NCBI GenBank assembly: GCA_043814315.1
Contig: JBDRKE010000023.1
Location: 15,576-79,575 of the forward strand
DNA: 64,000 nucleotides
Direction: 5' to 3'
Origin: Candidatus Omnitrophota bacterium
Lineage (GTDB): Bacteria; Omnitrophota; Gorgyraeia; Gygaellales; Profunditerraquicolaceae
The position numbers and the translations under genes were made by a program. The notes below the pieces were generated by a model. The model did no database searches. It had not been told where the DNA came from and saw only the letters and a program-made list of their open reading frames with translations. Every line of letters begins with the position of its first letter. The stretch's first letter is position 1. This document shows positions 4,725 through 61,501 of this stretch, in pieces.

Positions 4725-5423
4725 TTATTGCCCTTTAGATGAATCCTTGGCTACGGCCTCACTCACAGGGCTCTCAACGGTGCGTACTTTTTTTTTGATA
4801 AGGATATCTCCTTTGTAAATCCATACTTTGACTCCGATCAGACCGTAAGTGGTTAAGCTTTCGGCAAAACCATAATCAATATCCGCGCGTATAGTCTGCA
4901 GGGGCACTTTACCCTGTTTATAAGTCTCCTTGCGGGACATTTCAGCACCGTTAAGGCGGCCCGCGCAACTGACTCTTACCCCTTTGGCCCCTGCGTTCGT
5001 TGTCTGCTCCATGGCACGCTTCACCGCACGCCGAAAGGCCACTCTTTTCTCTAATTGAAAGGCAATGTTCTCCGCCACTAACTGAGCGTCCAAAGCAGGG
5101 TTCTTGACTTCTTCTATATCGATGGATATTTCGGTCTTGACCATATTATTCAGGTCTTCGCGCAGGCGCTCTATATCGGCTCCGTGACGGCCGATAACGA
5201 TCCCGGGGCGCGCCGTCAGTATTCGGATCTTTAATTTCCCAGCTAATCTCTCAATAATGATGCGGGAGACCGCGGCCTGTTTGAATCTTTTTTTGATGAA
5301 TTTCCTGATCTTATAATCCTCAAAGATAAACTCAGAAAACTCCCTCGGCTTTGCAAACCACCGGCTGTGCCAGGTTTTAATATAACCGACTCTGAACAAA
5401 AACGGATGCACCTTCTGTCCCAT
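4725..5423 (-). CDS. rpsC: 30S ribosomal protein S3
   Basis: [24 protein letters not shown] typical uS3; AAGGAG SD. Confidence 0.95.
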
Positions 5424-5449
5424 TATTTTAACTCCTTGAAATAAAGTTT

Positions 5450-5551
5450 AAAATTCCGAATTCCAAACGCCAAATTCCAAACACAGAGCTTCGGACATTG
5501 GGATTTGTTTGGGATTTGTTTGGGATTTGTGATTTGTAATTTGGGATTTTT
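5450..5551. repeat. Word-built imperfect hairpin (ccaaa / tttggg words), rplV|rpsC gap
   Basis: A/C-rich arm aaattccgaattccaaacgccaaattccaaacac opposite the tandem ttgggatttgt x3 arm. Confidence 0.85.
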
Positions 5552-5564
5552 CGTGTCATTATAT

Positions 5565-5897: not shown

Positions 5898-6157
5898 TTA
5901 ATGAGCGCTAAACTTACGAAAGCACGAAGTGCAACGTAAGTTTATGCGCGAATTAACCCCCCACCACTTTTTAAATACACTTGAGATATCTTACGGTATT
6001 GCTCCCCCTCCTACCCCATTCTGTAAATCACACGCTTGTTACAAAAAGTGGTGGGGGGTAAGTTCAGACATAAATTTATGTTCGCTTGCCGCACAAGCGG
6101 CACACCGGCTGTTCCGATACAGCCGGGTGCTCGCTCCATAAATTTAGTCCTCACTTA
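5898..6157 (-). repeat. Junction element family 1, full copy (modules C-B-A), rpsS|rplV
   Basis: Shares TAAGTGAGGAC..., the ACCCCCCACCACTTTTT/AAAAAGTGGTGGGGGGT stem, and GCGCAT-AACTTACG..CGTAAGTT-AGCGCTCATTAA with the other copies. Confidence 0.9.
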
Positions 6158-6159
6158 CA

Positions 6160-6447
6160 TTATGTCTTCTCAACCGCTTTCTTCGCCTTAACGCCACCAT
6201 GTTTTCTGAAGATGCGCGAAGGAGCGAACTCCCCCAGTTTATGGCCCACCATGTTTTCGGTGACAAAAACTGGCGCGTGTTTTCTGCCGTCGTGAACGGC
6301 AAAAGTCAAACCTACAAAATCGGGAATGATGGTCGAGCGCCTGGACCAGGTCTTGATGGCCTGGCGGCTACCGCTTCGGCTGACCTTTTCCACTTTCTTC
6401 AGTAATTTTTCATCAACAAACGGACCCTTTTTTAAAGAACGGGGCAT
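6160..6447 (-). CDS. rpsS: 30S ribosomal protein S19
   Basis: [19 protein letters not shown] typical uS19; SD GTGAGGAG. Confidence 0.95.
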
Positions 6448-6467
6448 ATCTCCTCACTTTCACTCGT

Positions 6468-6596
6468 CAAAATCCAAATGTCAAAGCACAAAGCTTAAAA
6501 TGCGCACAAAACACAAAATCCAAAACAATCAGGCTTTTATTAGGATTTTGAATTTTGAATTTATTTTGTGCTTTGAATTTTGTCATTTGAATTTAT
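6468..6596. repeat. Word-built imperfect hairpin (caaaat / attttg words), rplB|rpsS gap
   Basis: caaaatccaaatgtcaaagcacaaa... opposite ...tttgtgctttgaattttgtcatttgaattt. Confidence 0.85.
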
Positions 6597-7429: not shown

Positions 7430-7430
7430 G

Positions 7431-7637
7431 TTTAATGAGCGCTTAACTTACGAACACAATAGTGTTCGTAAGTAAATGCGCGAATTAACCCCCCACCACT
7501 TTTGCTATAACCTATGCTATATTGAAAGTGGTGGGGGGTAAGTTCGGGCATAAATTTATGTTCGCTTGCCGCACAAGCGGCACACCGGCTGTTCCGATAC
7601 AGCCGGGTGCGCGCTCCATAAATTTAGCCCTCACTTA
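7431..7637 (-). repeat. Junction element family 1, copy with short module-B loop, rplW|rplB
   Basis: Same modules; the module-B loop is only about 20 nt; overlaps the rplW 3' end. Confidence 0.9.
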
Positions 7638-9251: not shown

Positions 9252-9311
9252 GATTATTTTCCAGTTGTCCTGTTCGCCGGCTGACCTGTTTTGAACCGGC
9301 TCACAGGCTAA

Positions 9312-9369
9312 TCCTTCGACGGACTCAGGACACTTCGAAGAAGTACACTGAACGAAGCCGAAGTGCCGG
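9312..9369. repeat. Palindromic repeat family 3 (cttcg words), diverged copy, rpsJ|rplC gap
   Basis: tccttcgacggactcaggacacttcgaagaagtacactgaacgaagccgaagtgccgg; about 85 percent match to the reverse complement of 14656-14713 by eye. Confidence 0.75.
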
Positions 9370-9387
9370 AAAACCGGCTAACTTATT

Positions 9388-9687: not shown

Positions 9688-9742
9688 TCAATGAGCGCTT
9701 AACTTACGGAACACTAGTGACGTAAGTTAATGCGCGAATTGA
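9688..9742 (-). repeat. Junction element family 1, module A only, upstream of rpsJ
   Basis: aatgagcgcttaacttacg-loop-cgtaagttaatgcgcgaatt directly abutting the rpsJ ATG. Confidence 0.85.
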
Positions 9743-9773
9743 CTTCACACGAAAAGGAACTTTTCGTGTGAAG
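9743..9773. other. Perfect 14-bp hairpin after tuf
   Basis: cttcacacgaaaag-gaa-cttttcgtgtgaag; no U-tract follows in the mRNA sense. Confidence 0.8.
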
Positions 9774-9784
9774 CACTCTTGTTA

Positions 9785-10990
<1,206 letters not shown>

Positions 10991-11085
10991 ACTGATCCTC
11001 CTTCAATTTGCCCGTGTTTTACGGGCCAGCAAATTGATCCTTGACACGAAACATCCCATTACAACTCTCGCTTTCGTGTCAAGGA
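10991..11085 (-). repeat. Leader repeat family 2, upstream of tuf
   Basis: mRNA sense: 14-bp hairpin TCCTTGACACGAAA..TTTCGTGTCAAGGA, then TCAATTTGC-hairpin-GCAAATTGA, then AGGAGGA and ATG. Confidence 0.75.
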
Positions 11086-11173
11086 TAACTTCGGACATAT
11101 AAGTTATGTCGCTATCATCTTTTATAACTTGGTAAATATTTCGATATGGCCCCATAACTTATGTCCCCGCTTA
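11086..11173 (-). repeat. Family 1-related short form after fusA
   Basis: TAAGCGGGGAC-ATAAGTTATG-45-nt loop-CATAACTTAT-ATGTCCGAAGTTA; the fusA stop is its first TAA. Confidence 0.7.
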
Positions 11174-13270: not shown

Positions 13271-13539
13271 TTTTAATGAGCGCTTAACTTACGAATCCCG
13301 AAACTTCGGGATGAGTAAGTTAATGCGCGAATTAACCCCCCACCACTTTTTAAATACACTTGAGATTAAATCTTACGGTATATCTACCCCTCCCACCCCA
13401 TCTAACAAATCACGCGTTTGTTACAAAAAGTGGTGGGGGGTAAGTTCGGACATAAACTTATGTTCGCTTGCCGCAGGAGCGGCACACCGGCTGATCCGAT
13501 AAAGCCGGGTGCGCGCTCCATAAGTTTAGTCCTCACTTA
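13271..13539 (-). repeat. Junction element family 1, full copy, rpsG|fusA
   Basis: All three modules; the rpsG stop TAA is the first triplet of TAAGTGAGGAC. Confidence 0.9.
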
Positions 13540-14007: not shown

Positions 14008-14267
14008 TTTTAATGAGCGCTTAACTTACGCACACAATAGTGTGCGTAAGTTAATGCGCGAATTAACCCCCCACCACTTTTTAAATACACTTGAGATATC
14101 TTACGGTATTGCTCCCCCTCCCACCCCATTCTGTAAATCACACGCTTGTTACAAAAAGTGGTGGGGGGTAAGTTCGGACATAAACTTATGTTCGCTTGCC
14201 GCAGGATCGGCACACCGGCTGATCCGATAAAGCCGGGTGCGCGCTCCATAAGTTTAGTCCTCACTTA
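14008..14267 (-). repeat. Junction element family 1, full copy, rpsL|rpsG
   Basis: All three modules; near-identical to the 5898 copy in the module-B loop. Confidence 0.9.
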
Positions 14268-14636: not shown

Positions 14637-14655
14637 ATTTTTGTTTGCTGATTTG

Positions 14656-14713
14656 CCAGCACTTCGCTTTCGCTCAGTGTCCTTCGGCGAAGTGTCCTGA
14701 GCCCGCCGAAGGA
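14656..14713. repeat. Palindromic repeat family 3, diverged copy, rpoC|rpsL gap
   Basis: Reverse-oriented relative to 9312-9369. Confidence 0.75.
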
Positions 14714-14758
14714 TTTTCCGGTTTGCCGGTTTAACCGGCTCATCGGCGAACTGGCTAA

Positions 14759-18805: not shown

Positions 18806-18836
18806 AATTCGTTAATCTCGTTAGGTTCCTTATTGT

Positions 18837-18872
18837 CGTTATTTTCGTTAAACAACCTCAACGAAAATAACG
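18837..18872. repeat. 13-bp perfect hairpin in the rpoB|rpoC gap
   Basis: cgttattttcgtt-10 nt-aacgaaaataacg, embedded in cgtta/taacg word repeats. Confidence 0.85.
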
Positions 18873-18898
18873 AACAAAACGAAAGTAATCTTACAACT

Positions 18899-22303: not shown

Positions 22304-22373
22304 AATATTTAGTTTCCCAGTTTTCCGGTTGGCCTATTTGCCAATTAAACTGGCTAACCGGCGAACTGGCTAA

Positions 22374-25023: not shown

Positions 25024-25071
25024 CCCGTTAGAAACTCCTCTCTCCCCGTTAAAAATAAGTTTCTAACGGGG
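25023..25071. repeat. 13-bp perfect inverted repeat filling the secE|nusG gap
   Basis: ccccgttagaaac ... gtttctaacgggg; termini similar to the pilin MITE TIR. Confidence 0.85.
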
Positions 25072-25072
25072 C

Positions 25073-26722: not shown

Positions 26723-27681
26723 TTTATGGCCAACCGAATGGCTTCGATTAATGAACACGGATCCGCCAGATGCCTTTTTTTAGCAATATCGAAGGCCGTT
26801 CCGTGCAAAGGAGAAGTCCGCACAAAGGGAAGGCCCAGCGTCATGTTGACCCCAAAGTTTTCTCTGAATAATTTCAGGGGGATGAGGGCCTGGTCATGGT
26901 ACATAGCAATCACGGCATCGTAAGAGCCTTGAAAAGCCCTGGCAATGGCAACATCCGAAGCCAAGGGGCCCTCTAAATCTTTTATTTTGTTTTTTAACTT
27001 TTTTAAGACGGGCTTTACGAGCTTATTCTCTTCCCAGCCGATAACTCCGTTATCGGAGGCATGGGGATTTAATCCGCAAACGACCAGCCTTGGGTGCTTT
27101 AGTAAAAACAATATTCTTAAAGCATGATACGTCATCAAAATGGTCTTGGATAACCTTGCGGCGGCTAAGGCCTGGGAGACGCAGGACAACGGTATGTGGC
27201 GGGTCGCCAGACTAAATCTTATCCGCCTATTTAAAAGCATCATCACTAAATCTTTGGTATGGGTCTTTTCGGAAAAATACTCTGTGTGCCCCGCATATCG
27301 CAAAGACGCCCTTTTCACTGCCTCTTTGGAAATAGGGCAGGTCACCAGGCAATCTAGTTCTTTGTTTCTTAAAAGCTCTAAGGCCTTGTCCAGATATTCT
27401 ATAGACGCCCAGCCGTATTCCGCCCTGACCTTTCCAAACTCGAAACCCACTCTATTGACATTCTTCAGATCTACAAAATTGAATTTTTTGGATTTTGGAT
27501 TTTGCCTGCCTGCCGGACAGGCAGGGATTTTGGATTTTTCAAAAACCCATGCATCCCCTATCACCGTGAACTCTGCCTCGGGCTTCAGATAACTAAGGGC
27601 TTTGGCCGTGATGGCCGCTCCGATCCCGGAAGGATCGCCCATCGTAATTCCGACTCTTATCTTTCCTTTCTGTTTACTCAT
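26677..27681 (-). CDS. pdxA: 4-hydroxythreonine-4-phosphate dehydrogenase
   Basis: GITMGDPSGIG N-terminus and HTEYF, PHASDNG, HGTAFDIA blocks. Start taken at ATG 27681; the ORF-track start 27738 is a TTG inside repeat DNA. Confidence 0.85.
   Translation of the reverse strand: MSKQKGKIRVGITMGDPSGIGAAITAKALSYLKPEAEFTVIGDAWVFEKSKIPACPAGRQNPKSKKFNFVDLKNVNRVGFEFGKVRAEYGWASIEYLDKALELLRNKELDCLVTCPISKEAVKRASLRYAGHTEYFSEKTHTKDLVMMLLNRRIRFSLATRHIPLSCVSQALAAARLSKTILMTYHALRILFLLKHPRLVVCGLNPHASDNGVIGWEENKLVKPVLKKLKNKIKDLEGPLASDVAIARAFQGSYDAVIAMYHDQALIPLKLFRENFGVNMTLGLPFVRTSPLHGTAFDIAKKRHLADPCSLIEAIRLAIKCTLNQRRDSARISW
27485..27540. repeat. cctgcctg-ccgga-caggcagg hairpin flanked by ggattttgg direct repeats, inside pdxA
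   Basis: Hairpin at 27505-27525; direct repeats on both sides; read in frame as KSKIPACPAGRQNPKSKK. Confidence 0.8.
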
Positions 27682-27786
27682 CTGCCATAACGAATGATTA
27701 ACATGAAAAATCCCAAATCCAAATATTTCCAAATCCAAAATAAATCCCTAATCCAAAACTATTTGGGATTTTGAAATTGGGATTAC
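27682..27786. repeat. Word-built hairpin spacer (aaatcc / ggattt words), surA-like|pdxA gap
   Basis: aaaaatcccaaatccaaat...aaatccctaatccaaaac opposite tttgggattttgaaattgggatt. Confidence 0.8.
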
Positions 27787-28851
27787 TCATGAGTTATCCT
27801 GAAGTATCTTGATGTACGCCTTCTTTTTGAGCCCATCAAGCCAATTCGAAAACTGCTCCTGCATTTTTAAATCGAAGAGATAGGCCTGGATTCTCACCTG
27901 GGCCTCTGAAAGGGTAAGTTGTCGCGGAGGTGTTATCTTGAGTAGTTTGAAAATGTAAAATTTGTTGTTGACTTTTAAGGGCTGAGAGTATTCGCCCGGA
28001 TTTAAGCTGCAGACCTTCTCTTCTATATCCTGGCGAAGCCCTCCATCGCGCTTAGCCACAATCTTATCGACTGTAAGAGGGAATCTTTTCTGTAAATCCT
28101 CCAATTTCTGTCCGGATCTAAACAGATTCTCGAACTCTCTGGCTGAGTCTTCCCTGTCTGTGTCCAGTATAACGATGTCGCATTCACGCTCTTCTCCAGT
28201 TACAAATTCCTTCATGTTTTTGTTATAAAAGGTCGTGACTTCATCGGGCCTGATCATGATTTTATCCTGGACGCTTTGCTCTACTATCATATACATAAGC
28301 ATTTGCTCCCGTATCTTCCTCTCCAGATCCGCCTGAACCAGGCCTTGTTTGGCTAAGTCATTCTGAAAATCTGCCTCCGAGGAGTAATGCCTTCTGATCT
28401 CGTTGATCTTTGCCTTGATCCTATTATCGTCTACCTTCACGTTTATGGCCTTGGCTTCCTGCAAAATAAGACGGTCCTCGATCAATTTCTCCAACAGATC
28501 CTTCCTTGTGGCCTCAATGCGTTTTTCGGCCTCGGCTTCATTATATTCCCTGGACAGCTGCAGCTGTGTAAAATTGAAAAAATCATTCAGGTCCCTCTGG
28601 GTAATTGCCTCGTTATTGACGACGGCAACGATTTTATCCTGCGCATAAACGGTAGAAATTCCAAATACAAAATTCCAAATAAGCACCAATACCCAAATGA
28701 CCAAAAAACGAAACTTAAAATAATGAAAAATTGGGATTTGGGTACCTCGACTCCGCTCGATACCAATGGTGAACGAAGTCGATCCATTGGAATTGGCATT
28801 TGTTTGGGATTTGGGATTTGGAAATTTGGATTTTAAGAAGTGATTAGTCAT
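27787..28851 (-). CDS. surA: SurA-like periplasmic chaperone / parvulin-type PPIase
   Basis: Signal-peptide-like VIWVLVLIWNFVFGISTVYA, SurA-N-like helical region and one parvulin-like domain; surA-pdxA-rsmA synteny. The first ~45 codons are repeat words, so the true start is probably downstream (e.g. TTG 28704). Confidence 0.6.
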   Translation of the reverse strand: MTNHFLKSKFPNPKSQTNANSNGSTSFTIGIERSRGTQIPIFHYFKFRFLVIWVLVLIWNFVFGISTVYAQDKIVAVVNNEAITQRDLNDFFNFTQLQLSREYNEAEAEKRIEATRKDLLEKLIEDRLILQEAKAINVKVDDNRIKAKINEIRRHYSSEADFQNDLAKQGLVQADLERKIREQMLMYMIVEQSVQDKIMIRPDEVTTFYNKNMKEFVTGEERECDIVILDTDREDSAREFENLFRSGQKLEDLQKRFPLTVDKIVAKRDGGLRQDIEEKVCSLNPGEYSQPLKVNNKFYIFKLLKITPPRQLTLSEAQVRIQAYLFDLKMQEQFSNWLDGLKKKAYIKILQDNS

Positions 28852-30751: not shown

Positions 30752-30827
30752 ATTATACTTTAGGTTGCGTTATGCGGTTACGAGACCCCTATTAGTTAAA
30801 GCTTAGGAAAAATAGATTTGATTTCCT

Positions 30828-30943
30828 GTGTAATGTGTAATGTGTAATGCGGGTGGAATGTATCTATGTGGAATGGAAAAGGATTTACCATTACACAATG
30901 AAACATTACGCCAACATTACACTTTACACATTCAACATTACAC
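30828..30943. repeat. Word-built hairpin (gtgtaat / attacac words), secDF|mfd gap
   Basis: gtgtaat x3 tandem (30828-30849) opposite cattacac-type words repeated 5 times (30889-30943). Confidence 0.85.
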
Positions 30944-30974
30944 AGATAATATGACGGCGATCGTGACGTAACCC

Positions 30975-33176: not shown

Positions 33177-33281
33177 GCTTACTCCTTAATTTTAAGAAAA
33201 TATAATAATACGTGCAACCTCAAATCCCAATGACTAAAACTTACTGTTTGTGCTTTGGAATTTGTTTGTAATTTGAAGCTT

Positions 33282-33334
33282 GCCCCGTTAGAAATTTTGA
33301 ACGACAATTGGTTAAGAAAATATTTTTAACGGGC
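33282..33334. repeat. Related gccccgttagaaa ... tttttaacgggc hairpin in the secDF|yajC gap
   Basis: Imperfect inverted repeat sharing the cccgtta core. Confidence 0.7.
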
Positions 33335-33374
33335 TTGGGGCTTGATGCTTAAACTCTTTTTTGTGTGACTTATG

Positions 33375-33906: not shown

Positions 33907-34030
33907 TGTAATCCTCCTTCAATGAGCCCCGCTGCATTCTTGCATTCGCAAGAATGCAAGAAGCGGGGCGAATTGATCCCGAGCCTGCGAAGAAAATTTC
34001 TTTGAAATTTTCGAGCGTTTAGGCGAGGGA
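33907..34030 (-). repeat. Leader repeat family 2, upstream of rpsP
   Basis: TCCCTCGCC..GAAAATTTC/GAAATTTTC hairpin..GGCTCGGGATCAATT-CGCCCCGC..GCGGGGC-TCATTGA-AGGAGGA. Confidence 0.75.
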
Positions 34031-35521: not shown

Positions 35522-35540
35522 AAGTTAAAATTCCAAATAT

Positions 35541-35626
35541 CACTACACAAATTACAAACAATATACAATAATCAAATCAAAAAAAAAGTGTATTGTGATT
35601 TGTCTGTATATTGGTATTTGTGATTT
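35541..35626. repeat. Word-built hairpin (acaaat / atttgt words), hisI|trpE gap
   Basis: cactacacaaattacaaacaatatacaataatcaaatc opposite gtgtattgtgatttgtctgtatattggtatttgtgattt. Confidence 0.8.
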
Positions 35627-35630
35627 ATCT

Positions 35631-36724: not shown

Positions 36725-36845
36725 AAATTCAAATGACAAAATCCAAAATTCAAAACAAATCCAAAATTCAAAACAAAAGATTTTCGATTTTTGATTTTGT
36801 GCTTTGTGCTTATTTTGTGCTTTGTTATTTGTTATTTGGATTTAT
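36725..36845. repeat. Word-built hairpin (caaaat / ttttg words), lipoprotein|hisF gap
   Basis: aaattcaaatgacaaaatccaaaattcaaaacaaatccaaaattcaaaac opposite gattttgtgctttgtgcttattttgtgctttgttatttg. Confidence 0.8.
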
Positions 36846-36850
36846 GTTCT

Positions 36851-38039: not shown

Positions 38040-38060
38040 ATAGCAAGCGTCAATTCAGGT

Positions 38061-38124
38061 AAATTCCAAATCCCAAGCAAATCCCAAATCAAAAACTATT
38101 TTGGGATCTTGACATTTGGATTTA
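38061..38124. repeat. Word-built hairpin (aaatccc / gggat words), hisH|hisA gap
   Basis: aaattccaaatcccaagcaaatcccaaatc opposite ttttgggatcttgacatttggattt. Confidence 0.8.
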
Positions 38125-38127
38125 TCA

Positions 38128-38742
38128 CTACAATTCAACAAAATTTTTTAAGATTTTCAACCCTACGCTCTGGCTCTTTTCCGGATGAAACTGTACCCCA
38201 TAGAGGCCATCCTGCCAGACCATAGCAGCAAAATCCAGACCATAAGGCGTAGTCGCCGCCACTACATCAGTTTCCCTCGGCTGGGGATAATACGAATGAC
38301 AAAAATAAACAAAGGAATTATCTTCAATGCCTTTTAATAAAGGGCACTCCTTTTGGATTTTGGATTTCTTTAATTGGTTCCACCCCATATGCGGTACCTT
38401 AAGCCCATCCGCTTGCTTAAATTTTTTGACCTTGCCTTTTATGAATCCCAGGCCTTTTGATTCCCTGGCTTCTTCACTCTCCTCGAAGAATAGCTGCATA
38501 CCCAAGCAGATCCCTAAGAGGGGTTTATGGTTGCTGACGTATTGACGTAAACAACTGATGAGATTCCGCTTTTTCAATTCACGCATAGCATCCTCAAAGG
38601 CGCCTACACCCGGAAGCACGCACTTTTTTGCTGATGCTATAGCCTCAGCCTTATTGGTAACAATCGTCTTGGCACCGGTAAACTCCAAGGCTTTATGAAC
38701 GCTGTGAATATTCCCCATGCCGTAATCAATAATTGCAATCAT
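38128..38742 (-). CDS. hisH: Imidazole glycerol phosphate synthase glutaminase subunit
   Basis: MIAIIDYGMGNIHSV ... GICLGMQ ... FHPEKS triad motifs. Confidence 0.92.
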   Translation of the reverse strand: MIAIIDYGMGNIHSVHKALEFTGAKTIVTNKAEAIASAKKCVLPGVGAFEDAMRELKKRNLISCLRQYVSNHKPLLGICLGMQLFFEESEEARESKGLGFIKGKVKKFKQADGLKVPHMGWNQLKKSKIQKECPLLKGIEDNSFVYFCHSYYPQPRETDVVAATTPYGLDFAAMVWQDGLYGVQFHPEKSQSVGLKILKNFVEL

Positions 38743-38761
38743 GTGTCATATAATTCAGAAT

Positions 38762-38820
38762 CCAGAAACCAGTCCTTCGACTACGCTCAGGACTGGCACT
38801 GAGCAGAGTCGAAGTGCCAG
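38762..38820. repeat. Palindromic repeat family 3, hisB|hisH gap
   Basis: 59 nt identical to the reverse complement of 42618-42676 (checked base by base). Confidence 0.9.
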
Positions 38821-38854
38821 TAACCAGATAGCGGTAATTATTTTCAACAGTAAC

Positions 38855-39460: not shown

Positions 39461-39501
39461 CCGTTCTTCCTTTCAATTTAGCGGGCGCTGCCTTGAAATA
39501 C

Positions 39502-39525
39502 CAAGATCGGGTCTTGTAACTCATT
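39502..39525. repeat. 24-bp repeat caagatcgggtcttgtaactcatt in the hisD|hisB gap
   Basis: Identical to the reverse complement of 46924-46947. Confidence 0.85.
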
Positions 39526-39559
39526 GCCTATCAATCTGTTTCAAGTCCCGGTCTTGAAT

Positions 39560-40786: not shown

Positions 40787-43455
40787 CTTGGGATTTGCCT
40801 GATAGCCGCTTTTAATTTTTCGAGTGCATTTTTGTAATTTTGAGGCTTACTGCCTCCTGCCTGCGCAAAATCCTTTCTTCCCCCGCCGCTGCCCCCGATC
40901 TCGGACGCTACCTCTTTAATAAGCCTTGAGGCATCCACACCTTTGGCGCATAAGTCCTGCGTCACCCCTATAGCCAACCAGATCTTGGCTTCTGCGCAAG
41001 TGCTTGAAATAATAATCGCATTCGTGGTTTTCTCCTTCGCTAAATCTACGCTTTGGCGTAAGGTATTCATGTCTAAATCCGGCTCATTTTGCTCAATCAA
41101 TTTTATGCCATTGATCAACTCGGCTTTTTGAATCGATTCCTCAAGGGATAAGCGTACCGTATTAAGGCGCTGGGCGCTTAATTGTTTCTCCAGTTCCTTT
41201 AAGCGAACCATTCTCTTCTCGATCTCCTGGGATAAATTCGGCTCAGGGACGCTTAATCTCTCGGCGATATCTCTGACAACACGCTCCTCTTCTTTGATAA
41301 TCTTATAGGCGGTTTTTCCCGTAACCGCTTCGATTCTTCTTATGCCGCTGGCCACAGACCCTTCCTGGGTTATCTTAAACAGGCCGATTGAGCCCGTAGA
41401 GTCCAGATGGGTTCCGCCACACAGTTCCTTAGAGAAGTCTCCGACACTCACCACACGCACCTTATCTTCGTATTTTTCGCCGAAGAAAGCCAATGCCCCT
41501 GACTTCTTGGCTTGCGCTAAAGCCATTGGCTTGACAGAAAGCTGATGGTTATTCAGGATATAATCATTAACCACTTCTTCAATTCTGTCCAGCTCTTCTT
41601 TTTTGATATCCTTAAAGTGCGTGAAGTCAAAACGCAATCTGTCGTGGGCCACCAGAGAGCCCCGCTGTTTGACGTGCGAGCCTAAAACCTTTCTTAAAGC
41701 CGCCTGCAAAAGGTGGGTTGCCGTATGGTTTCTGGCTATGGAGAGCCGGCGTTCGACATCGGCTTTTGCCAAGATGGTATCATTTTTTTTGAAGCTGCCG
41801 GATTTGACTTTTCCGATATGGACGAAGCAAGAGCCGAACCTCTTCGTATCAAAAACCTCAAAAACATTCCTTCCCTTAATAATCTCACCCGCATCTCCTA
41901 CCTGGCCGCCTGACTCTGCATAGAAAGGAGTCTTATCCAATACCAGGACTGCTTCATCCTGTTGGCTGATCTTTTTTGTTTCAGTATCGCCCTTGACTAT
42001 TTTCAATATCTTTGTTTTTAGAGCCATCTCCTTATAGCCTGAAAATTGAGTCGCTTTGACGTGGTAAAGCAGGTCCTTATCGCTAAAGACATCCCCTTTC
42101 ATGGCGCTTTGCAGCTTGGAGCGCTTTTTCTGCTCTGAAAGTTCCTTTTCTAGTATGTCTTTAGAAATTTGAATGCCTTTTTTTTCTAGCCAATTCAACG
42201 TCAAATCTAAAGGCATCCCATGGGTATCATATAGCTGAAAAGTAATCCTGCCAACCTCCTTGGGGTTGGGGCTGTCCTGAAACCCTTTAAATTTTTCATG
42301 CAAAAGGGCTTCGCTGGAATTTAATGTTGCCAGAAAACTCTTCTCTTCCGCCTGGATAATCTCAGAGATATTCTCCTGCCGGCCCCTGAGTTCGGGATAA
42401 TAAGATTTCATGGTCTCCGCTACGACAGGCACCAATTTATACAGAAAGGCATGCGCCCACCCCATGGCCCTTAAATGCAGGGTGCACTTACGGATCAGTT
42501 TTCTTATCACGTAACCCCTGGCTTCATTGGAAGGCAGGACTCCGTCATAAATGGCAAACACTATGGCACGGATATGGTCGGTTACTGCATAAATCAATTC
42601 TTTCTGGTTCCTGGTTCCTGGCACTTCGACTCTGCTCAGTGCCAGTCCTGAGCGTAGTCGAAGGACTGGTTTCTGGTTTCTGGCTATTTCTTTTATAATC
42701 GGGATAAACAAATCCGTCTCAAAATTATTCGCTACCCCCTGCATGACCGCAGCCAGCCTCTCTAAACCCATACCGGTGTCTATATTCTTCCTGGGCAAAG
42801 GCTCTAATACGCCTCCTTCTTTGCGGTTAAACTGGGTAAAGACGAGGTTCCAGACTTCCACAAAACGCCCGCAGCCGCAGGCAGGAGAACAATCCGGCTT
42901 CCCGCATCCGGCGCCTGAGCCTACATCATAAAATATCTCCGAGCAGGGGCCACAGGGGCCATTAGGCCCTTTTGCCTTAGCCTCTGAAGGCCAGAAATTT
43001 TCTTTATCCCCTAATCTGATGATTTTGTTTTCCGGAATCTCAATGGAATCGCGCCATATCTTATAGGTTTCGTCATCGTCTTTATAGACCGAGACCCAAA
43101 GCTTCTCGGACGGAATACGTAGTTCCCGGGCCAAAAATTCCCAGGCGTAGAGAATCGCTTCTTTTTTGAAATAGTCTCCGAAGGAAAAGTTTCCCAGCAT
43201 TTCAAAAAACGTGTGGTGACCGCTGGTCTTGCCGACTTTATCCAGGTCATCGGTGCGCAGGCACCGCTGGCTGGAGGAAGCACGCTTCAAGCCTCTGCCT
43301 ATCCCCAGAAATTCTTTCTTGAATTGATTCATTCCCGCAGGCGTAAACAATACCGTAGGGTCATCCCCGGGGATCAAAGAGCCACTCTCGATAATCTTGT
43401 GATTTTTTGATTTAAAAAAATCTAAAAACTTTTTTCTTAAGATATCTGCCTGCAT
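40783..43455 (-). CDS. alaS: Alanine--tRNA ligase
   Basis: 890 aa with class II core (FTPAGMNQFK, RCLRTDD), editing-domain HTATHLL and C-terminal DHHA1-like region. Contains an in-frame repeat insertion at 42604-42684. Confidence 0.95.
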   Translation of the reverse strand: MQADILRKKFLDFFKSKNHKIIESGSLIPGDDPTVLFTPAGMNQFKKEFLGIGRGLKRASSSQRCLRTDDLDKVGKTSGHHTFFEMLGNFSFGDYFKKEAILYAWEFLARELRIPSEKLWVSVYKDDDETYKIWRDSIEIPENKIIRLGDKENFWPSEAKAKGPNGPCGPCSEIFYDVGSGAGCGKPDCSPACGCGRFVEVWNLVFTQFNRKEGGVLEPLPRKNIDTGMGLERLAAVMQGVANNFETDLFIPIIKEIARNQKPVLRLRSGLALSRVEVPGTRNQKELIYAVTDHIRAIVFAIYDGVLPSNEARGYVIRKLIRKCTLHLRAMGWAHAFLYKLVPVVAETMKSYYPELRGRQENISEIIQAEEKSFLATLNSSEALLHEKFKGFQDSPNPKEVGRITFQLYDTHGMPLDLTLNWLEKKGIQISKDILEKELSEQKKRSKLQSAMKGDVFSDKDLLYHVKATQFSGYKEMALKTKILKIVKGDTETKKISQQDEAVLVLDKTPFYAESGGQVGDAGEIIKGRNVFEVFDTKRFGSCFVHIGKVKSGSFKKNDTILAKADVERRLSIARNHTATHLLQAALRKVLGSHVKQRGSLVAHDRLRFDFTHFKDIKKEELDRIEEVVNDYILNNHQLSVKPMALAQAKKSGALAFFGEKYEDKVRVVSVGDFSKELCGGTHLDSTGSIGLFKITQEGSVASGIRRIEAVTGKTAYKIIKEEERVVRDIAERLSVPEPNLSQEIEKRMVRLKELEKQLSAQRLNTVRLSLEESIQKAELINGIKLIEQNEPDLDMNTLRQSVDLAKEKTTNAIIISSTCAEAKIWLAIGVTQDLCAKGVDASRLIKEVASEIGGSGGGRKDFAQAGGSKPQNYKNALEKLKAAIRQIPR
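42618..42676. repeat. Palindromic repeat family 3 copy inside the alaS coding sequence
   Basis: 59/59 match to the reverse complement of 38762-38820; read in frame by alaS. Confidence 0.9.
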
Positions 43456-46466: not shown

Positions 46467-46512
46467 CTTAACCCTCCACAGTGAATTAAACTTGTTTAAA
46501 TTCAAGAAATTA

Positions 46513-46541
46513 ATTATAGCCCACTAATATAACCCTGTCAA
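46513..46541 (-). promoter_or_regulatory. Consensus sigma70-type promoter of recA
   Basis: Minus strand reads TTGACA-17 nt-TATAAT (-35 at 46541-46536, -10 at 46518-46513). Confidence 0.65.
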
Positions 46542-46544
46542 CAG

Positions 46545-46743
46545 ATTCGTATCCATGATTCCATACCATTAAGCACAGATGATCACAGATAGAAATCCGC
46601 ATAAAACCTTCCTTTAGAAACGGCAGATGACCACAGATAAAGGTAGCTTTAAAGGCGTATCTGCGATCATCAGTGTCTTTTAATCAGCGATCATCTGTGC
46701 ATATAGTGTTCCATAACTGTGAAAATAACACATTCGTATCCAT
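46545..46743. repeat. Palindromic segment bounded by 12-bp direct repeats upstream of the recA promoter
   Basis: attcgtatccat at 46545-46556 and 46732-46743; internal inverted repeat gcacagatgatc (46573-46584) / gatcatctgtgc (46689-46700). Confidence 0.75.
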
Positions 46744-46796
46744 AAGCCACCCCTCCTTTCTATCATAATCCCTCCTGCGCCTTTGGAGGACGCGGG

Positions 46797-46853
46797 ATAA
46801 GTTCGGACATAAATTTACGGAACGCCAGTGAGCGTAAATTTAGTCCTCACTTA
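46797..46853 (-). repeat. Family 1 short form in the recA/GGDEF divergent region
   Basis: TAAGTGAGGAC-TAAATTTACG-loop-CGTAAATTTA-TGTCCGAACTTAT. Confidence 0.8.
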
Positions 46854-46892
46854 ATAGACGCAGGAATAAAGCAAATCTAACGAAAAAATTTT

Positions 46893-47002
46893 CAAGATCG
46901 GGTCTTGACATCGCTTGGTAAACAATGAGTTACAAGACCCGATCTTGACATAACTCTAAAGACCCGGTCTTGACATAACTCTACGATCTTGACATAACTC
47001 TA
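46893..47002 (+). repeat. 15-bp inverted repeat followed by three tandem cttgacataactcta units
   Basis: caagatcgggtcttg (46893-46907) / caagacccgatcttg (46933-46947). TTGACA occurs at 46905, 46945, 46970 and 46989. Confidence 0.85.
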
Positions 47003-47017
47003 AAAATATGTTAAAGT
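46989..47017 (+). promoter_or_regulatory. Promoter of the GAF-GGDEF gene, probably giving a leaderless mRNA
   Basis: TTGACA (46989-46994)-17 nt-TAAAGT (47012-47017). Only 7 nt separate the -10 box from ATG 47025, and there is no SD. Confidence 0.5.
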
Positions 47018-47024
47018 CACCGCT

Positions 47025-48203
47025 ATGGAAGATTTAACCAAAATCAAGCAAGAGCTGGAACGCACCAAGACAGAGCTGGGCATTCTTTATGAAATCTCCA
47101 ATGCCATGCGCACGACTCTGAGGCTGGAGGAGATCCTCTATATCATCCTGACAGGCGTCACAGCCCATATCGGACTGGGCTTTAACCGAGCTCTTCTGTT
47201 TCTGGTTAATGAGCGGGAAGGCCTCGTGGAAGGCAAAATGGGGATTGGCCCGGAAACCGGAGAAGAAGCCAACCGTATCTGGAAACAGATAGAACAGGAA
47301 AAGATGGACCTAGATGACCTGATCAGCGTCTCTAAATCTTCCAACTCCACCTTAGGCTCCAATTTTAACCGGCAGATCCAGCATTTAAAATTCTCGCTTC
47401 AGGACAAAAACGAAAACCTGCTGGCTATGGCTATTTTGGAAGGCATGCCCCTGCATCTGACCAAAGAAACAATGGCAAACTACCAGGATTACCCCATCAT
47501 TAAAATTCTTAAAAGTGAAGAGATAGTCTTAATCCCCTTAAAAGCAAAAGATAAAATTAACGGCATTATCGTGGCAGATAATTTTATTACCCAAGAACCC
47601 ATAACCAAAGACGATATCCGGATGCTTGCGATGCTGGCGAACCAGGCGGGCCTGGCCATTGAGAATTCCCAGCTTTACGAAAAAACCGTAATGCTGGCGC
47701 ACATGGATTCCCTTACGCAACTTTGGCACCATGGCCACTTCCATCACCTTCTTCAGACGGAATTAGAAAAATCCAAAGCCATGAACTCATCCTTAAGCCT
47801 CATTATGCTTGATATTGATGACTTTAAAATCTACAATGACTCACTCGGCCATCAGTCGGGAGACAGGATGTTAAAGGAATTAGCGAATTTGCTCAAGAAT
47901 CAATCCCGGAAGATGGATTATGTCTGCCGTTACGGCGGAGAGGAATTTACGATTATCCTACCGCAGACCGATAAAAAAGAGGCTTTTTTGATTGCGGAGC
48001 GGCTCAGGTTAGATATCGAAAGGCATCCCTTTATAGGCGAGGAGAATCTGCCTAAGAAAAAATTTACGGCGAGCCTGGGATTGGCCACCTATCCTGAAGA
48101 CGGAAACTCTCCCGCCGAACTTATTGAAGCAAGCGACAAGGCGCTTTACCAGGCAAAAAACAAAGACAAAAACAACACCTGCTGCTCAACCCCCTCGCTC
48201 TAA
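47025..48203 (+). CDS. GAF domain-containing diguanylate cyclase (GGDEF)
   Basis: C-terminal GGDEF domain with an RYGGEEF active site; N-terminal GAF-like region; only plus-strand gene in the window. Confidence 0.85.
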   Translation: MEDLTKIKQELERTKTELGILYEISNAMRTTLRLEEILYIILTGVTAHIGLGFNRALLFLVNEREGLVEGKMGIGPETGEEANRIWKQIEQEKMDLDDLISVSKSSNSTLGSNFNRQIQHLKFSLQDKNENLLAMAILEGMPLHLTKETMANYQDYPIIKILKSEEIVLIPLKAKDKINGIIVADNFITQEPITKDDIRMLAMLANQAGLAIENSQLYEKTVMLAHMDSLTQLWHHGHFHHLLQTELEKSKAMNSSLSLIMLDIDDFKIYNDSLGHQSGDRMLKELANLLKNQSRKMDYVCRYGGEEFTIILPQTDKKEAFLIAERLRLDIERHPFIGEENLPKKKFTASLGLATYPEDGNSPAELIEASDKALYQAKNKDKNNTCCSTPSL

Positions 48204-54290: not shown

Positions 54291-54401
54291 CTTAGCAAAT
54301 TCCAAGTACCAAGCTCCAAACTCCAAACTTTTATTTCGGTCATTGAGATTTCGGTTATTGGAGCTTGTTTGGGATTTGGAATTTGAAATCTGGGATTTAA
54401 C
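54291..54401. repeat. Word-built hairpin (ctccaaa / tttggag words), etfB|etfA gap
   Basis: caaattccaagtaccaagctccaaactccaaac opposite ttggagcttgtttgggatttggaatttgaaatctgggattt. Confidence 0.8.
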
Positions 54402-55184: not shown

Positions 55185-55435
55185 TAATGAGCAGATAACT
55201 TATATCGTTCTTAAGAACGATATAAGTTATAGCGTCCCTTATTTTATTTGTTTATCAGCGTCTGCGAATTAACCCCCCACCACTTTTTGAACAGACGCTT
55301 GAGATAAAATTTACGGTATGGCTTTTCCCCACGCCATATTTAACAAAACCCTCACTAGCTACAAAAAGTGGTGGGGGGTAAGTTCGGCCAGACAACTTAA
55401 CTTCACTATCGTTCGTTAAGTTGTGGCCTTACTTA
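55185..55435 (-). repeat. Junction element family 1, divergent full copy, acyl-CoA DH|etfB
   Basis: Same module-B stem; modules A and C have different sequence but the same hairpin positions. Confidence 0.85.
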
Positions 55436-56584: not shown

Positions 56585-56755
56585 TGAACCTCCTCAATTT
56601 GCCCTCTATAGCAGATTCAACAAATTGATCCCGAGTATCCAGCTACTGCTTCTGTGATACGAGGGACTAATTTGCCCGCATCCAGAGGTTCGTAAAATTG
56701 ATCCCGAGCTTACGAATAAAATTTCACTGAAATTTTCAAGTGTTTAAGCGAGGGA
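56585..56755 (-). repeat. Leader repeat family 2, two tandem units upstream of the acyl-CoA dehydrogenase gene
   Basis: Two units, each with TCCCTCG..CTCGGGATCAATT..GGGCAAATT. The distal unit is close to the rpsP copy in the GAAAATTTCA..GAAATTTT segment. Confidence 0.75.
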
Positions 56756-56765
56756 TTTCAGTTCG

Positions 56766-59478: not shown

Positions 59479-60231
59479 TTAATTTGATACTTCCTTCTTA
59501 ATTTTACTGATCTTAGAAGGCAATATGACAATTTCAACTCTGCGGTTTTTCTGCATGTTCTCCTTTGTGTCATTTGCCACAACCGGCCGGAATTCTCCAT
59601 AGCCATTAGCAGAAAGCCTTGTCGGTTTTACCTTGCACTCATCAATAAGATAATGCAATACTGCTAATGCCCGCGCCGACGAAAGTTCCCAGTTTGACTT
59701 CCAACCCGAATATTTTATCGGCTGGTTATCCGTATGGCCTTCAATGGCAACATTGGAATTAGGGACATCGCGGTTTAAAACTCCAGCTACTTTCTGAAGT
59801 AATTCATTGCCGTCTCCACGGATTATGTCTTTTCCTGAATCAAAAAATACCTCAGACAAAAAAGTAATCACCAGCCCCCGCTCCGTCATCTCCAGCTTAG
59901 CTTTATAGTTTCCGATTTCTTTCTTAAGGGCATCTTCTAGCTCAAGTTTTGCTTTTTCAAGCTCGGAAAGCTCTCTATCCTTCTCTCTAACTACCTGCTC
60001 AACTTCTTTTGCCTTCTCTTTCTGAAGTTGTGCAATCCAAACCCGTAAATTCTGATTCTCGGCCTCCAGTTCATCAGCTCTTTCAGCTTTTTGAATATAG
60101 GCACATCCGGACATTGTAGATACTGCAAAAAACATGATAATTACAAATTTAATCTTCGTGGGTAAACCTCCTTTATTATAGCTGTTCGAAATATTTATAG
60201 GCATGTAATGACACCTTTGCAATAAATTCAT
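59479..60231 (-). CDS. OmpA/MotB-domain protein with coiled-coil region
   Basis: C-terminal OmpA-like block GHTDNQPI...NWELSSARALAV...NRRVEIVI; N-terminal lipobox-like MSGC; GGAGGA SD 7 nt upstream. Confidence 0.8.
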   Translation of the reverse strand: MNLLQRCHYMPINISNSYNKGGLPTKIKFVIIMFFAVSTMSGCAYIQKAERADELEAENQNLRVWIAQLQKEKAKEVEQVVREKDRELSELEKAKLELEDALKKEIGNYKAKLEMTERGLVITFLSEVFFDSGKDIIRGDGNELLQKVAGVLNRDVPNSNVAIEGHTDNQPIKYSGWKSNWELSSARALAVLHYLIDECKVKPTRLSANGYGEFRPVVANDTKENMQKNRRVEIVILPSKISKIKKEVSN

Positions 60232-60268
60232 AAGACTTTCCTCCTTTTATACATTCAAAATTATAATT

Positions 60269-61267
60269 TCATTTTGAATCTGTTTTAACTTTAAAAACAG
60301 ATTCCTTTTCATCATAAATCTCACCAAAAAGTTCTTCAAGCACATCTTCCATAGTTAAAACTCCCATATTTTGCCTTCGGCTATTCTGAACAATAAAAAG
60401 ATGCTGATGGTAAGCCTGAAACTTCTCTAAAAGCTTATCTGCCTTTTCATTCTCATCTACAAATATGGGTCTGGACATAAAATCTTGTACTTTTGCCTCG
60501 TAATTATCTTTGGCAATCTCTCTTAACAGAACTCTTTGTTGACATATTCCCGCAATATCGGAGATATCCTTTCCATAAACAACGATTCTACTGTATGGGG
60601 AATTAACTATCGCTTCTCTAACTTCAGAAAGTGACTTATCAGCTTGGAGGGCATATATATTTTCTATGGGCTTCAACATTTGGAATGCCCTTAAGTCGTT
60701 GAGCTTAAATACTCTGTTACACAGAGTTTCCTCATCAGTCTCAACGGTGCCTGCCGCCCTACCCAATTGAAGCATAATCTTTATCTCTTCTTCGGTTACT
60801 TTTGGTAGTTTAGATCCCCTTTTAAAGGGATTGGTGGCTAAAACTAAAATCCCAACCAGTGGCCTAAACAACCACATCAAGCCCTGCAATGGCTTTGCGC
60901 TTGCTAAACAAATCTCAACTTTGTAATGCTCCCCAACAGTCTTAGGTATTACTTCAGAGATAACTATGATAGCAAAGGTGATAACCGCAGAAGCAATGCC
61001 TAACCAATGCCTGCCGAATAAGTAAGTTACTCGCTGACCAACAAATATCGAACCAATTATATTAATACTGTTATTAAGTATAACGATTGTAGCAACAGCC
61101 AGATGGATATTCTCTTTAATAGAAAGGAGTGTTTTTGAGCCTTTGCGCTTTTGTTCAAATAGAATCCTTGCTTTTACCAGTGGAAGACTTAAAATAGCCG
61201 CCTCTACCATAGAGCAGATACCAGAAAGAAAAAGTATGCTTATGACTAATATTATCAGCGTTAACAT
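60269..61267 (-). CDS. CNNM/DUF21 transmembrane domain protein with CBS pair (HlyC/CorC-type divalent cation transporter)
   Basis: N-terminal 4-TM DUF21-like domain with EVIPKT, followed by a CBS pair; lacks the CorC_HlyC C-terminal domain. Confidence 0.75.
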   Translation of the reverse strand: MLTLIILVISILFLSGICSMVEAAILSLPLVKARILFEQKRKGSKTLLSIKENIHLAVATIVILNNSINIIGSIFVGQRVTYLFGRHWLGIASAVITFAIIVISEVIPKTVGEHYKVEICLASAKPLQGLMWLFRPLVGILVLATNPFKRGSKLPKVTEEEIKIMLQLGRAAGTVETDEETLCNRVFKLNDLRAFQMLKPIENIYALQADKSLSEVREAIVNSPYSRIVVYGKDISDIAGICQQRVLLREIAKDNYEAKVQDFMSRPIFVDENEKADKLLEKFQAYHQHLFIVQNSRRQNMGVLTMEDVLEELFGEIYDEKESVFKVKTDSK

Positions 61268-61288
61268 AGGATAATCTTTACTTTAATC

Positions 61289-61480: not shown

Positions 61481-61501
61481 TTATACAACTCGCATTATAT
61501 C

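Follow-up and report, generated by a model that had tools for sequence, protein, structure and literature searches.

Heptameric simple-sequence repeats have been reported to be over-represented in many bacteria (PMC4692102). The repeats described here fill spacers between genes in a 64,000-nt stretch of DNA from a Candidatus Omnitrophota bacterium (GenBank assembly GCA_043814315.1, contig JBDRKE010000023.1, positions 15,576 to 79,575), which we call the window. An initial annotation had singled out eleven of its gaps, called the listed stretches below and named by their first positions, as long imperfect hairpins of one design. The best explanation, to which we assign a probability of about 0.58, is that the spacers hold some five families of dispersed, fast-turnover palindromic heptanucleotide-repeat elements, ∼60-190 nt long and non-coding. 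Repeats of this kind are already known; what is new is the phylum, how many flavours coexist, and how clean the comparative evidence is, and a literature search on repeats and hairpins in Omnitrophota found no paper.

In Xanthomonas, ∼185 GGGAATC arrays lie near stop codons, 70-75 convergent pairs are able to form stem-loops, and positions are conserved with variable length and sequence (PMC4692102). The elements in the window resemble these (Rehm et al. 2015) in being built of tandem 7-nt units, in lying mostly in intergenic DNA between co-directional genes and near or overlapping the upstream stop codon, in forming convergent stem-loop pairs, and in holding their positions between related species while length and sequence vary; the unit GGGNATY also resembles the GGGATTT of our family A. 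They differ in that Xanthomonas has one dominant G-rich unit, read as a G-quadruplex former, whereas at least five unrelated flavours, most without G-runs, are found here. Moreover, inverted arrays are the norm here, conservation across genomes extends to full-length elements at different loci, and close relatives are often altogether without the element. Head-to-tail 7-nt units at many dispersed, mainly intergenic sites, with convergent stem-loop pairs, place the elements in the class of short tandemly repeated repetitive (STRR) sequences; one characteristic unit per genome is not found. At least five flavours occur within 64 kb, and the multiflavour cyanobacterial situation is the closer match. 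Elhai et al. are said to have described, in 2008, small dispersed repeats embedded in the heptanucleotide repeats (STRR; GGGGA(C/T)T) of Nostoc and Anabaena, and the tiny hairpins nested in heptamer arrays here recall what is reported of Nostoc. Cyanobacterial STRRs likewise show many tandem-heptamer flavours in spacers, including those inside operons, and one GGGGATT array of Anabaena lies within the pec operon (pecE-pecF) (PMC4692102). Unlike in Anabaena, where inverted pairs are few (PMC4692102), inverted arrays dominate here, and the phylum is different.

In Beggiatoaceae, 169 TAACTGA arrays lie directly upstream of start codons mostly without a Shine-Dalgarno motif, some in ribosomal-protein operons and a few in frame in open reading frames (ORFs), and have been proposed as a protein-binding site (PMC4679880). 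Dispersed heptamers upstream of starts without a Shine-Dalgarno motif, presence in ribosomal-protein operons, occasional in-frame copies (at the ORF periphery for TAACTGA), and suspected mobility are common to both systems (MacGregor 2015, PMC4679880). TAACTGA, which also forms repeats in cyanobacteria and Bacteroidetes, is, however, a single heptamer in direct arrangement, with one indirect repeat among 170 sets and no hairpins, in contrast to the hairpins here. In Geobacter metallireducens, an element made of four heptamers is present 49 times, both within genes and between them (PMC2700814). REPINs are hairpin-forming inverted doublets of REPs (repetitive extragenic palindromes) spread by RAYT transposases (PMC3116915); their hairpins of inverted arms in ssDNA or mRNA, several extragenic families per genome, non-autonomy, and spread within the genome resemble what is seen here (Bertels and Rainey 2011), whereas REP arms are unique 20-40 nt palindromes in numerous, closely similar copies and ours are periodic arrays in copies 76-88% identical. 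A miniature inverted-repeat transposable element (MITE) is marked by terminal inverted repeats and a target-site duplication; here the whole element is palindromic, and at one empty/filled site a 3-5 nt imperfect repeat flanks the inserted block. Rickettsia palindromic elements (RPEs) insert in frame into unrelated housekeeping genes, which survive the insertion (PMC10969869). Palindromic repeats in frame in such genes as well as in spacers are a likeness of behaviour only to RPEs, which are ∼150 bp long with a conserved peptide and no tandem heptamers; the in-frame pieces here, by contrast, are ∼17-160 nt and of varied flavour.

The genes of the window, identified by Pfam, lie nearly all on the minus strand. 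Each listed stretch other than 28690-28851 extends from one minus-strand gene's stop codon to the ATG of the gene that follows (this downstream ATG was verified for ten listed stretches); 28690-28851, previously taken for a gap, lies instead within the 5′ end of the surA ORF. When folded as RNA (+ strand, 200 dinucleotide shuffles per stretch), seven of the eleven gave z -3.6 to -6.1; 27682 and 36719 reached about -1.9, 28690 reached -1.5, and 33177 reached -1.15. Folded as DNA, nine of the eleven gave z -2.1 to -7.8 (Table 1). Coding control segments of equal length had a mean z of -0.30, with 1 of 40 below -2. Shuffling arm by arm, which is a harder control because the composition of each arm is kept, left ten stretches at z -1.9 to -10.2, and 33177 failed at -0.4. 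An independent search for inverted repeats gave arms of 17-55 nt, 73-88% complementary, at 6470 and 30827 (54-55 nt) and at 18821, 27702, 36730, and 54296 (17-29 nt). The hairpins are real in nine of the eleven stretches: these are long imperfect hairpins that fold better than shuffled controls. The expectation of folding energies below those of dinucleotide shuffles was thus borne out for most stretches, and the single design proposed for all eleven stands for nine, with 28690 and 33177 falling outside it (at z -0.4 to -1.2, the structure of the latter gap is not significant). Nor does the A/C-rich arm come first throughout, as had been claimed, since the G/T-rich arm leads in 18806 and 30752 and the other order is found elsewhere. 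Since reverse complementation leaves the order of the arms unchanged, this order is a genuine property, and it varies between elements.

The arms consist of tandem arrays, for which Tandem Repeats Finder (TRF) gave periods of chiefly 7 and also 11 and 18. Period 7 was called in nine of the eleven stretches, with units TTTGGGA, CACAAAA, ATTTTGA, TGTGTAA, CAAAATC, TTTGTGC, TCCAAGC, and TTTGGAA; 18806 gave period 9 and 33177 period 11. Pooled identity was 0.436 at lag 7 and 0.373 at lag 14, whereas coding DNA and the remaining gaps of the window gave 0.25. Over 1.37 Mb of window and related loci, 123 heptamer tracts were counted versus 4 in shuffles, and 68 of 363 co-directional gaps were heptamer-periodic, some of them in Kiritimatiellota and unassigned contigs. 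A search for arms as G-free and C-free runs was too noisy to use.

Each gap had been credited with a word flavour of its own, a claim that fails at several points. By blastn within the window, 5424 matches 54291 (76% over 103 nt), 6448 matches 36719 (76% over 125 nt), 27682 matches 38040 (83-85% over ∼60 nt), and the array of 28690 matches 5424 (88% over 42 nt). Arms are also interchangeable between gaps. A chimera of the left arm of 38040 and the right arm of 5424 folds at -41.2 kcal/mol versus -23.6 and -30.6 for the native stretches, and 6448-left with 36719-right folds at -51.2 versus -32.9 and -25.7; swapped arms pair as well as native arms or better. As judged from these matches and from homologues in the gaps of other genomes, the listed stretches form about five families, and their words are not gap-specific. 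Family A (AAATCCC-type) comprises 5424, 27682, 28690, 38040, 54291, and, weakly, 33177; family B (CAAAATC/CAAAGCA-type) comprises 6448 and 36719; three further families are ACAAAT (35522), CGTTA (18806), and GTGTAAT (30752). The same design of heptamer array, short loop, and complementary array recurs elsewhere with TAGGGNT, CTAGTGG, CAGAGGT, GCAGAAT, and CACAGCA units, in Kiritimatiellota, in one Omnitrophota genome of high G+C, and in metagenome contigs with an L2 that is just ∼60% identical.

The eleven stretches were compared by blastn with all related loci and genomes fetched for comparison (L-numbers below), which gave 41 hits at E<=1e-3, whereas 110 shuffled queries gave 1. Because periodicity inflates the scores, common descent was judged from the order of variant units and from non-periodic parts. 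The L2-S19 gap of the window contains the family B run AAATGACAAAATTCAAAGCACAAAATAAATTCAAAAT, which recurs in two gaps of L012, one of them yajC-secDF, and in the L22-S3 gap of L090. The GTGTAAT element has a homologue in the trpE-S16 gap of L006 (9162-9288, 78% over 127 nt); the window copy and L006 9150-9290 both contain GCGGGTG, CTATGTG, and CAATRAAACATTA, and a short copy lies in L006 between rpmG and a tRNA. Over 74 nt, the CGTTA element shares 80% identity with L005 9173-9246, whose end lies 2 nt ahead of the mfd ATG; the CGTTA flavour is also present in the tuf-S10 gap of L088. Taken together, these homologues indicate that the listed elements are dispersed families and not locus-specific sequences. 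In viral contigs, the family B signature had 0 hits; a CGTTA-family 16-mer had 55 scattered single hits, plausibly by chance and uninformative, and (GTGTAAT)3 had 12, equally uninformative, five of them in contigs labelled as giant-virus metagenome-assembled genomes.

Comparison with close relatives points to how the spacers came to be long. An exact look-up of the S19 protein returned no record. SecDF of the window is 55-80% identical to that of many other Omnitrophota genomes; the closest available genomes by this measure are L235 (90%), L081 and L084 (89%), L087 (88%), and L236 (85%), and in all five the gene order from alaS to rsmA is exactly that of the window. Co-directional genes are separated by a median of 90 nt in the window versus 0-25 nt in most relatives. 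The secDF-mfd junction measures 223 nt in the window, 39 in L235, and 20-21 in L081, L084, and L087, and is an overlap in L236. The hisH-hisA junction (88 nt) is an overlap in L081, L084, and L236, and surA-pdxA (105 nt) is an overlap in L081 and L236 and 15 nt in L087. Between hisF and a gene for a peptidoglycan-binding domain (PGb), 111-132 nt in the window correspond to 78 in L081, 82 in L084, and 18 in L236. The hisI-trpE gap (109 nt) measures 70-159 nt in L081, L084, and L087 and 1 in L236, and trpE-S16 (124 nt) measures 94 in L081, 101 in L087, 4 in L084, and 16 in L236. Every one of these junctions in L236 is thus an overlap or a spacer of 1-18 nt. These clade medians and the many junctions of relatives that overlap or measure at most 39 nt confirm that long spacers inside the S10, his, and etf operons are unusual, as had been proposed. 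Because the junctions of relatives overlap or are short, the elements are gains upon an ancestral layout that was compact, and their colonisation of this lineage is recent.

At least one gain came as a discrete block. The secDF-mfd spacer of L235 contains the 16-mer GGTTACGCAACCTAAA uninterrupted, that is, an empty site, whereas the window has GGGTTACG, then a ∼185-nt block including the GTGTAAT hairpin, and then CAACCTAAAG; this is discrete insertion rather than stepwise growth. An imperfect 3-5 nt repeat (TTACG / TAACG) flanks the block at this sole empty/filled pair. Relatives whose corresponding gap also holds a hairpin mostly have one of another family. Hairpins of the form (TTCGTAG)n-AAAATCTTTT-(CTACGAA/CTCCGAA)n fill up to four gaps each in L081, L087, and L235, including yajC-secDF, and L084 combines this TTCGTAG family with families A/B; the hisI-trpE gap holds TTCGTAG-family hairpins in L081 and L087 and a family A/B hairpin in L084. 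A right arm, CTCCGAGCTYCGAGCCACGAACTCCGGACTA, is common to the trpE-S16 and yajC-secDF copies of L081 and is absent from the yajC-secDF orthologues in L087, L235, and L084. Copies within a genome are thus homogenised relative to orthologous copies, and such greater likeness of paralogues is a signature of copying or conversion between loci.

The elements also occupy permissive sites in frame inside genes; four such insertions, in surA, pdxA, hisH, and alaS, add ∼7-46 residues relative to close relatives. The surA element is translated as KSKFPNPKSQTNANSN... / KSKFPNPKSQTN..., and the stretch as a whole is not significantly folded (z -0.9 to -2.2). The window, L081, and L087 all have the start ATG of surA overlapping the stop of mfd. 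At the site of the element, L081 carries an in-frame array that is homologous (86% over 65 nt), L087 and L236 have none, and L235 has a TTCGTAG-type hairpin instead. We also observed that the A/C-rich array of surA encodes a Lys/Asn/Pro/Ser-rich stretch before the hydrophobic core of the signal peptide. The pdxA insertion of the window corresponds to (GCTCGGA)x3 in L081 and (GCTCAAA)x3 in L087; three heptamers make 21 nt, or seven codons, and the two relatives together indicate that array-wide homogenisation does happen in place. The hisH site is expanded by 5 residues in L081 and by 12 in L084, where the expansion includes SLAGRQA. In alaS, the insertion adds ∼16 residues relative to L081, and the same element is present in the hisB-hisH spacer 38743-38854.

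Several observations weigh against reading the spacers as dispersed element families. Low-complexity periodic sequence inflates BLAST significance, and genome-wide copy numbers are extrapolated from 64 kb of the source genome. At 76-88%, identity among copies of one genome is low compared with REPINs or MITEs of recent activity. The 30 window proteins scanned include no transposase or other mobilising gene, and a REPIN system is defined by its linked RAYT gene. At the secDF-mfd empty/filled site, no clear target-site duplication was found. Finally, in several genomes a hairpin persists in the PGb-hisF, hisI-trpE, trpE-S16, and yajC-secDF gaps through complete turnover of the sequence. This retention, together with the conservation of paired positions, also fits selection for structure.

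Such selection is the core of the alternative that survives best, which we nevertheless hold unlikely: the hairpins would be host-beneficial RNA structures, acting as REP-like barriers to 3′ exonucleases, as RNase III/E sites, or as insulators of cistron expression. It is in keeping with this that the hairpins occupy nearly the whole spacer from stop to start and have not been purged from highly expressed operons. In two-sequence comparisons, paired positions are kept between distant copies and the differences fall in unpaired positions, a pattern that the consensus-structure method partly builds in and that the ambiguous alignment of periodic arms further blurs. The hairpins are, however, dispensable, since the same junctions overlap or measure 1-39 nt in the closest relatives, and both arm orders and in-frame copies exist. 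There is no bias toward folding of the mRNA strand. Over the 68 heptamer-periodic gaps, the sense strand is the more stable in 33 and the antisense strand in 35, with 220 versus 207 G-U pairs, and in 8 of the 11 window stretches the mRNA strand is the poorer folder; the proposal that G-U pairs favour one transcript orientation finds no consistent bias behind it. Neither terminators nor promoters are enriched in the 27-39 kb scanned (12 terminator calls versus a shuffle expectation of 13.1), no word hairpin there was called as an intrinsic terminator on the sense strand, the stems are A+T-rich, and over the whole window only two tRNAs match Rfam 15 at the gathering threshold. The functions suggested in the initial annotation, namely RNase punctuation, mRNA stabilisation, and insulation, thus gain no support.

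Less probable again is a purely local origin, in which each gap grew its palindrome from a seed and shared words reflect mutational bias rather than ancestry. All arms do contain 7-nt tandem arrays, and polymerase slippage has been proposed for over-represented heptameric repeats (PMC4692102). Moreover, arms are homogenised separately, as in L081, where (TTCGTAG)n stands opposite (CTCCGAA)n with one systematic mismatch per unit, and the pdxA site shows homogenisation of an array in place. Local growth does not, however, account for the recurrence of one order of variant units in full-length homologues that occupy different gaps in different genomes, for families within the window, for a block insertion that splits a 16-mer, or for paralogues that are more alike than orthologues, and it lacks a seed sequence where the genes of relatives overlap. 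The earlier proposal of local tandem duplication with template-switch inversion therefore keeps its first part, duplication of a short unit with a 7-nt period, and loses the purely local origin. A functional role for the G-runs of GGGATTT arrays as G-quadruplex or i-motif repeats, as for GGGNATC of Xanthomonas and Nostoc, is very improbable and largely refuted by the sequences: GGGATTT does resemble GGGAATC and GGGGATT (PMC4692102) and 5424 has four GGG runs, but most flavours (TTTTGGA, TTTGTGC, GTGTAAT, TTCGTAG, and CGTTA units) are without G3 runs, and where GGG runs are present, they are fewer than four or have loops of 8-20 nt.

For the dispersed families that we favour, the comparisons show that the elements were gained in this lineage at compact junctions. 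Slipped-strand mispairing, in steps of 7 nt, would make their arms longer or shorter and alter their flavour, and candidate mechanisms for copying between loci are ectopic conversion and transposition in trans. The hairpin would be a property of the element itself and not a requirement of the operon. With the main helix closed, 13-40 nt are left between stop and start codons. A Shine-Dalgarno motif is absent from the last 22 nt before 7 of 10 downstream genes, as would be expected of genes overlapping their upstream neighbour in relatives. Folding would preserve translational coupling by leaving 13-40 unpaired nt, and pairing would hide the C-rich, G-poor arm, which otherwise resembles a Rho loading site; the inverted arrangement may survive in operons for these two reasons. 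The elements are probably tolerated because folding keeps stop and start 13-40 nt apart, and if hairpins do preserve coupling across 100-200 nt, this could be a useful design principle for synthetic operons.

The elements would explain a median spacer of 90 nt where the genes of sister genomes overlap. They also matter for gene calling, since the starts of surA, pdxA, hisF, and etfA are easily misplaced and repeat-encoded peptides enter protein databases. A poorly understood heptanucleotide-repeat phenomenon is extended to an uncultured phylum, in which the clear empty/filled sites, contrasts between paralogues and orthologues, and in-frame insertions of this clade could reveal how such repeats spread.

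We also observed a mini hairpin of ∼20 nt, CCTGCCTG-N4-CAGGCAGG, in 8 copies over 1.87 Mb. All eight are embedded in a heptamer array, hairpin arm, or apex, one of them in the pdxA coding sequence; the copy in the yajC-secDF hairpin of L235 is missing from its counterparts in L081, L084, and L087. Judging by these positions, its behaviour is that of a tiny insertion element with other repeats as its targets. A bolder and tentative extension, possible but still doubtful, is that Omnitrophota and neighbouring phyla harbour a self-propagating system of heptamer-array hairpins, with a ∼20-nt mini hairpin that inserts specifically into such arrays, both moving among spacers and permissive in-frame positions of essential genes without any element-encoded protein. 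If this were true, it would parallel the repeats of heterocystous cyanobacteria and suggest a general route by which heptamer repeats are made and spread.

Table 1. Positions of the hairpin elements, their in-frame copies and homologues, other repeats, and genes (window coordinates unless an L-number is given)
Feature	Position	Location or strand	Listed stretch	Folding z	Remarks
Family A (AAATCCC / GGGATTT) hairpin	5450..5552	L22-S3 spacer	5424	RNA -3.8 (+ strand); DNA -2.1	TRF units TTGGGATTTGT x3, TTTGGGA x6.4; matches 54297-54398, 76% over 103 nt
Family B (CAAAATC / CAAAGCA) hairpin	6467..6596	L2-S19 spacer	6448	-3.3 to -3.6; DNA -3.3	arms 55 nt, 73% complementary; homologue 36725-36843, 76% over 125 nt
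CGTTA/TAACG hairpin	18815..18893	rpoB-rpoC spacer	18806	-3.2 to -4.3; DNA -4.3	G/T-rich arm first (+ strand); stops 2 nt short of rpoC ATG
Family A hairpin, apex AAATAGTTTT	27702..27791	surA-pdxA spacer	27682	DNA -2.8	22-nt arms, 82% complementary; matches 38064-38122, 83-85%
surA 5′ compound element	28690..28851	minus	28690	DNA -0.9	direct AAATCCC arrays around TCGAC...GTCGA core hairpin
GTGTAAT hairpin (30821-30950) in ∼185-nt block	30752..30974	secDF-mfd spacer	30752	-5.8 to -7.8; DNA -7.8	arms 54 nt, 78% complementary
Weak word hairpin CAAATCCCAAT / TTTGGAATTTG	33215..33278	yajC-secDF spacer	33177	arm-shuffle -0.4; DNA -0.5	
ACAAAT/ATTTGT hairpin	35525..35630	hisI-trpE spacer	35522	RNA -3.8 (+ strand); DNA -2.75	
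Family B hairpin, apex GAAAATCTTTTG	36725..36848	PGb-hisF spacer	36719	-1.9 to -2.45; DNA -2.3	TRF 18-nt unit x2.8 and several 7-nt units; homologues: window 6470-6594, also L012, L084, L090
Family A hairpin	38058..38127	hisH-hisA spacer	38040	RNA -5.15 (+ strand); DNA -3.8	
Family A hairpin	54294..54401	etfB-etfA spacer	54291	-4.4; DNA -4.4	TRF units TCCAAGC, CCAAACT, TTTGGAA; homologous to 5451-5549
pdxA insertion	27460..27525	minus			(AAAATCC)2, mini hairpin CCTGCCTGTCCGGCAGGCAGG, (AAAATCC)2; seven extra residues vs relatives
hisH array AAATCCAAAATCCAAAA / AAATCCAAAATCC	38351..38367	minus			in frame; TRF
alaS insertion	42600..42690	minus			(AGAAACC)n, TCCTTCGAC..GCTCAGGAC..CTGAGC..GTCGAAG hairpin, (AGGAACC)n
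Homologues of family B 6467..6596	L012 546-656; L012 5701-5817; L090 3186-3234	all other gaps			
Same design with other units	L165 4248-4348, 7536-7709; L155 357-452; L076 7561-7702; L077 4545-4655; L055 19978-20108				
Mini hairpin copies	2158-2180; 27506-27526; L008 14360; L084 4755, 5952; L091 1616, 2004; L235 632				
Composite repeat	5898-6159; 7430-7623; 9688-9784 (partial); 13271-13536; 14008-14264; 55185-55432			sense RNA -8 to -13	
TCCCTCG spacer family	33907-34030; 56585-56765; 10991-11170; L087 2599-2699				
CCGGTT/GCCAGTT spacers	9252-9387; 14637-14758; 22304-22373; 38743-38854			-3.2 to -5.0	
S10 operon genes	S3 4725-5423; L22 5565-5897; S19 6160-6447; L2 6599-7429	minus			Pfam
Gene block		minus			pdxA-surA-mfd-secDF-yajC-S16-trpE-hisI-hisF-(PGb)-hisA-hisH; Pfam
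Other genes near listed gaps					rpoC and rpoB; etfA and etfB; Pfam

An assembly artefact was considered and ruled out, as NCBI, JGI, ENA, and Logan assemblies independently show the same design. In three contigs that encode P0004 and come from different samples, the coordinates of the called genes are identical (L081/L082 from his to secDF; L083 around secDF).

Outside the listed eleven, 15 of 21 co-directional spacers also fold at z below -2, and nearly every long intercistronic spacer in the window is some hairpin repeat. A composite repeat of 190-265 nt, much more conserved, occupies further spacers in the S10, str, and acyl-CoA dehydrogenase/etf regions; it is laid out as TAATGAGCGCTTAACTTACG-hairpin-..CGAATTAACCCCCCACCACTTTT..AAAAGTGGTGGGGGGTAAGTTCG..GCCGCA..CACCGGCTG..CAGCCGGGTG, and shorter relatives are present in L001, L062, L089, L091, and L093. 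Another spacer family reads, in the mRNA sense, TCCCTCG..hairpin..CTCGGGATCAATT..hairpin..AATTGA-GGAGG; its 3′ end includes the Shine-Dalgarno motif, and it is conserved in the trpE-S16 gap of the window and of L087. In a further group of spacers, CCGGTT/AACCGG and GCCAGTT/AACTGGC words surround a core hairpin, TCCTTCGAC..GCTCAGGAC..CTGAGC..GTCGAAGG, which is also found inside alaS and, as a variant, inside the 5′ element of surA. Adjoining the weak word hairpin of the yajC-secDF spacer is an unrelated CCCGTTAGAAA hairpin at ∼33283-33340; the CCCGTTAGAAA...TTTCTAACGGGG hairpin recurs at 25024-25072 (z -4.9), at L062 14559-14690, and at L091 1993-2059.

The only long plus-strand gene of the window encodes a GAF-GGDEF protein (47025-48203). 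The 519 nt upstream of it (46506-47024) contain a 25-nt unit, AAGACCCGATCTTGACATAACTCTA, in three tandem copies and an inverted repeat, TCAAGATCGGGTCTTG, that is perfect over 16 nt; the related words GACCCGATCTTG and CCGGTCTTGAA are also found, on both strands, in the hisD-hisB spacer 39461-39559. At the end of the window (60001-64000), where genes with CNNM, CorA, and TrkA-C domains lie, G+C falls from ∼0.45 to 0.35-0.36.

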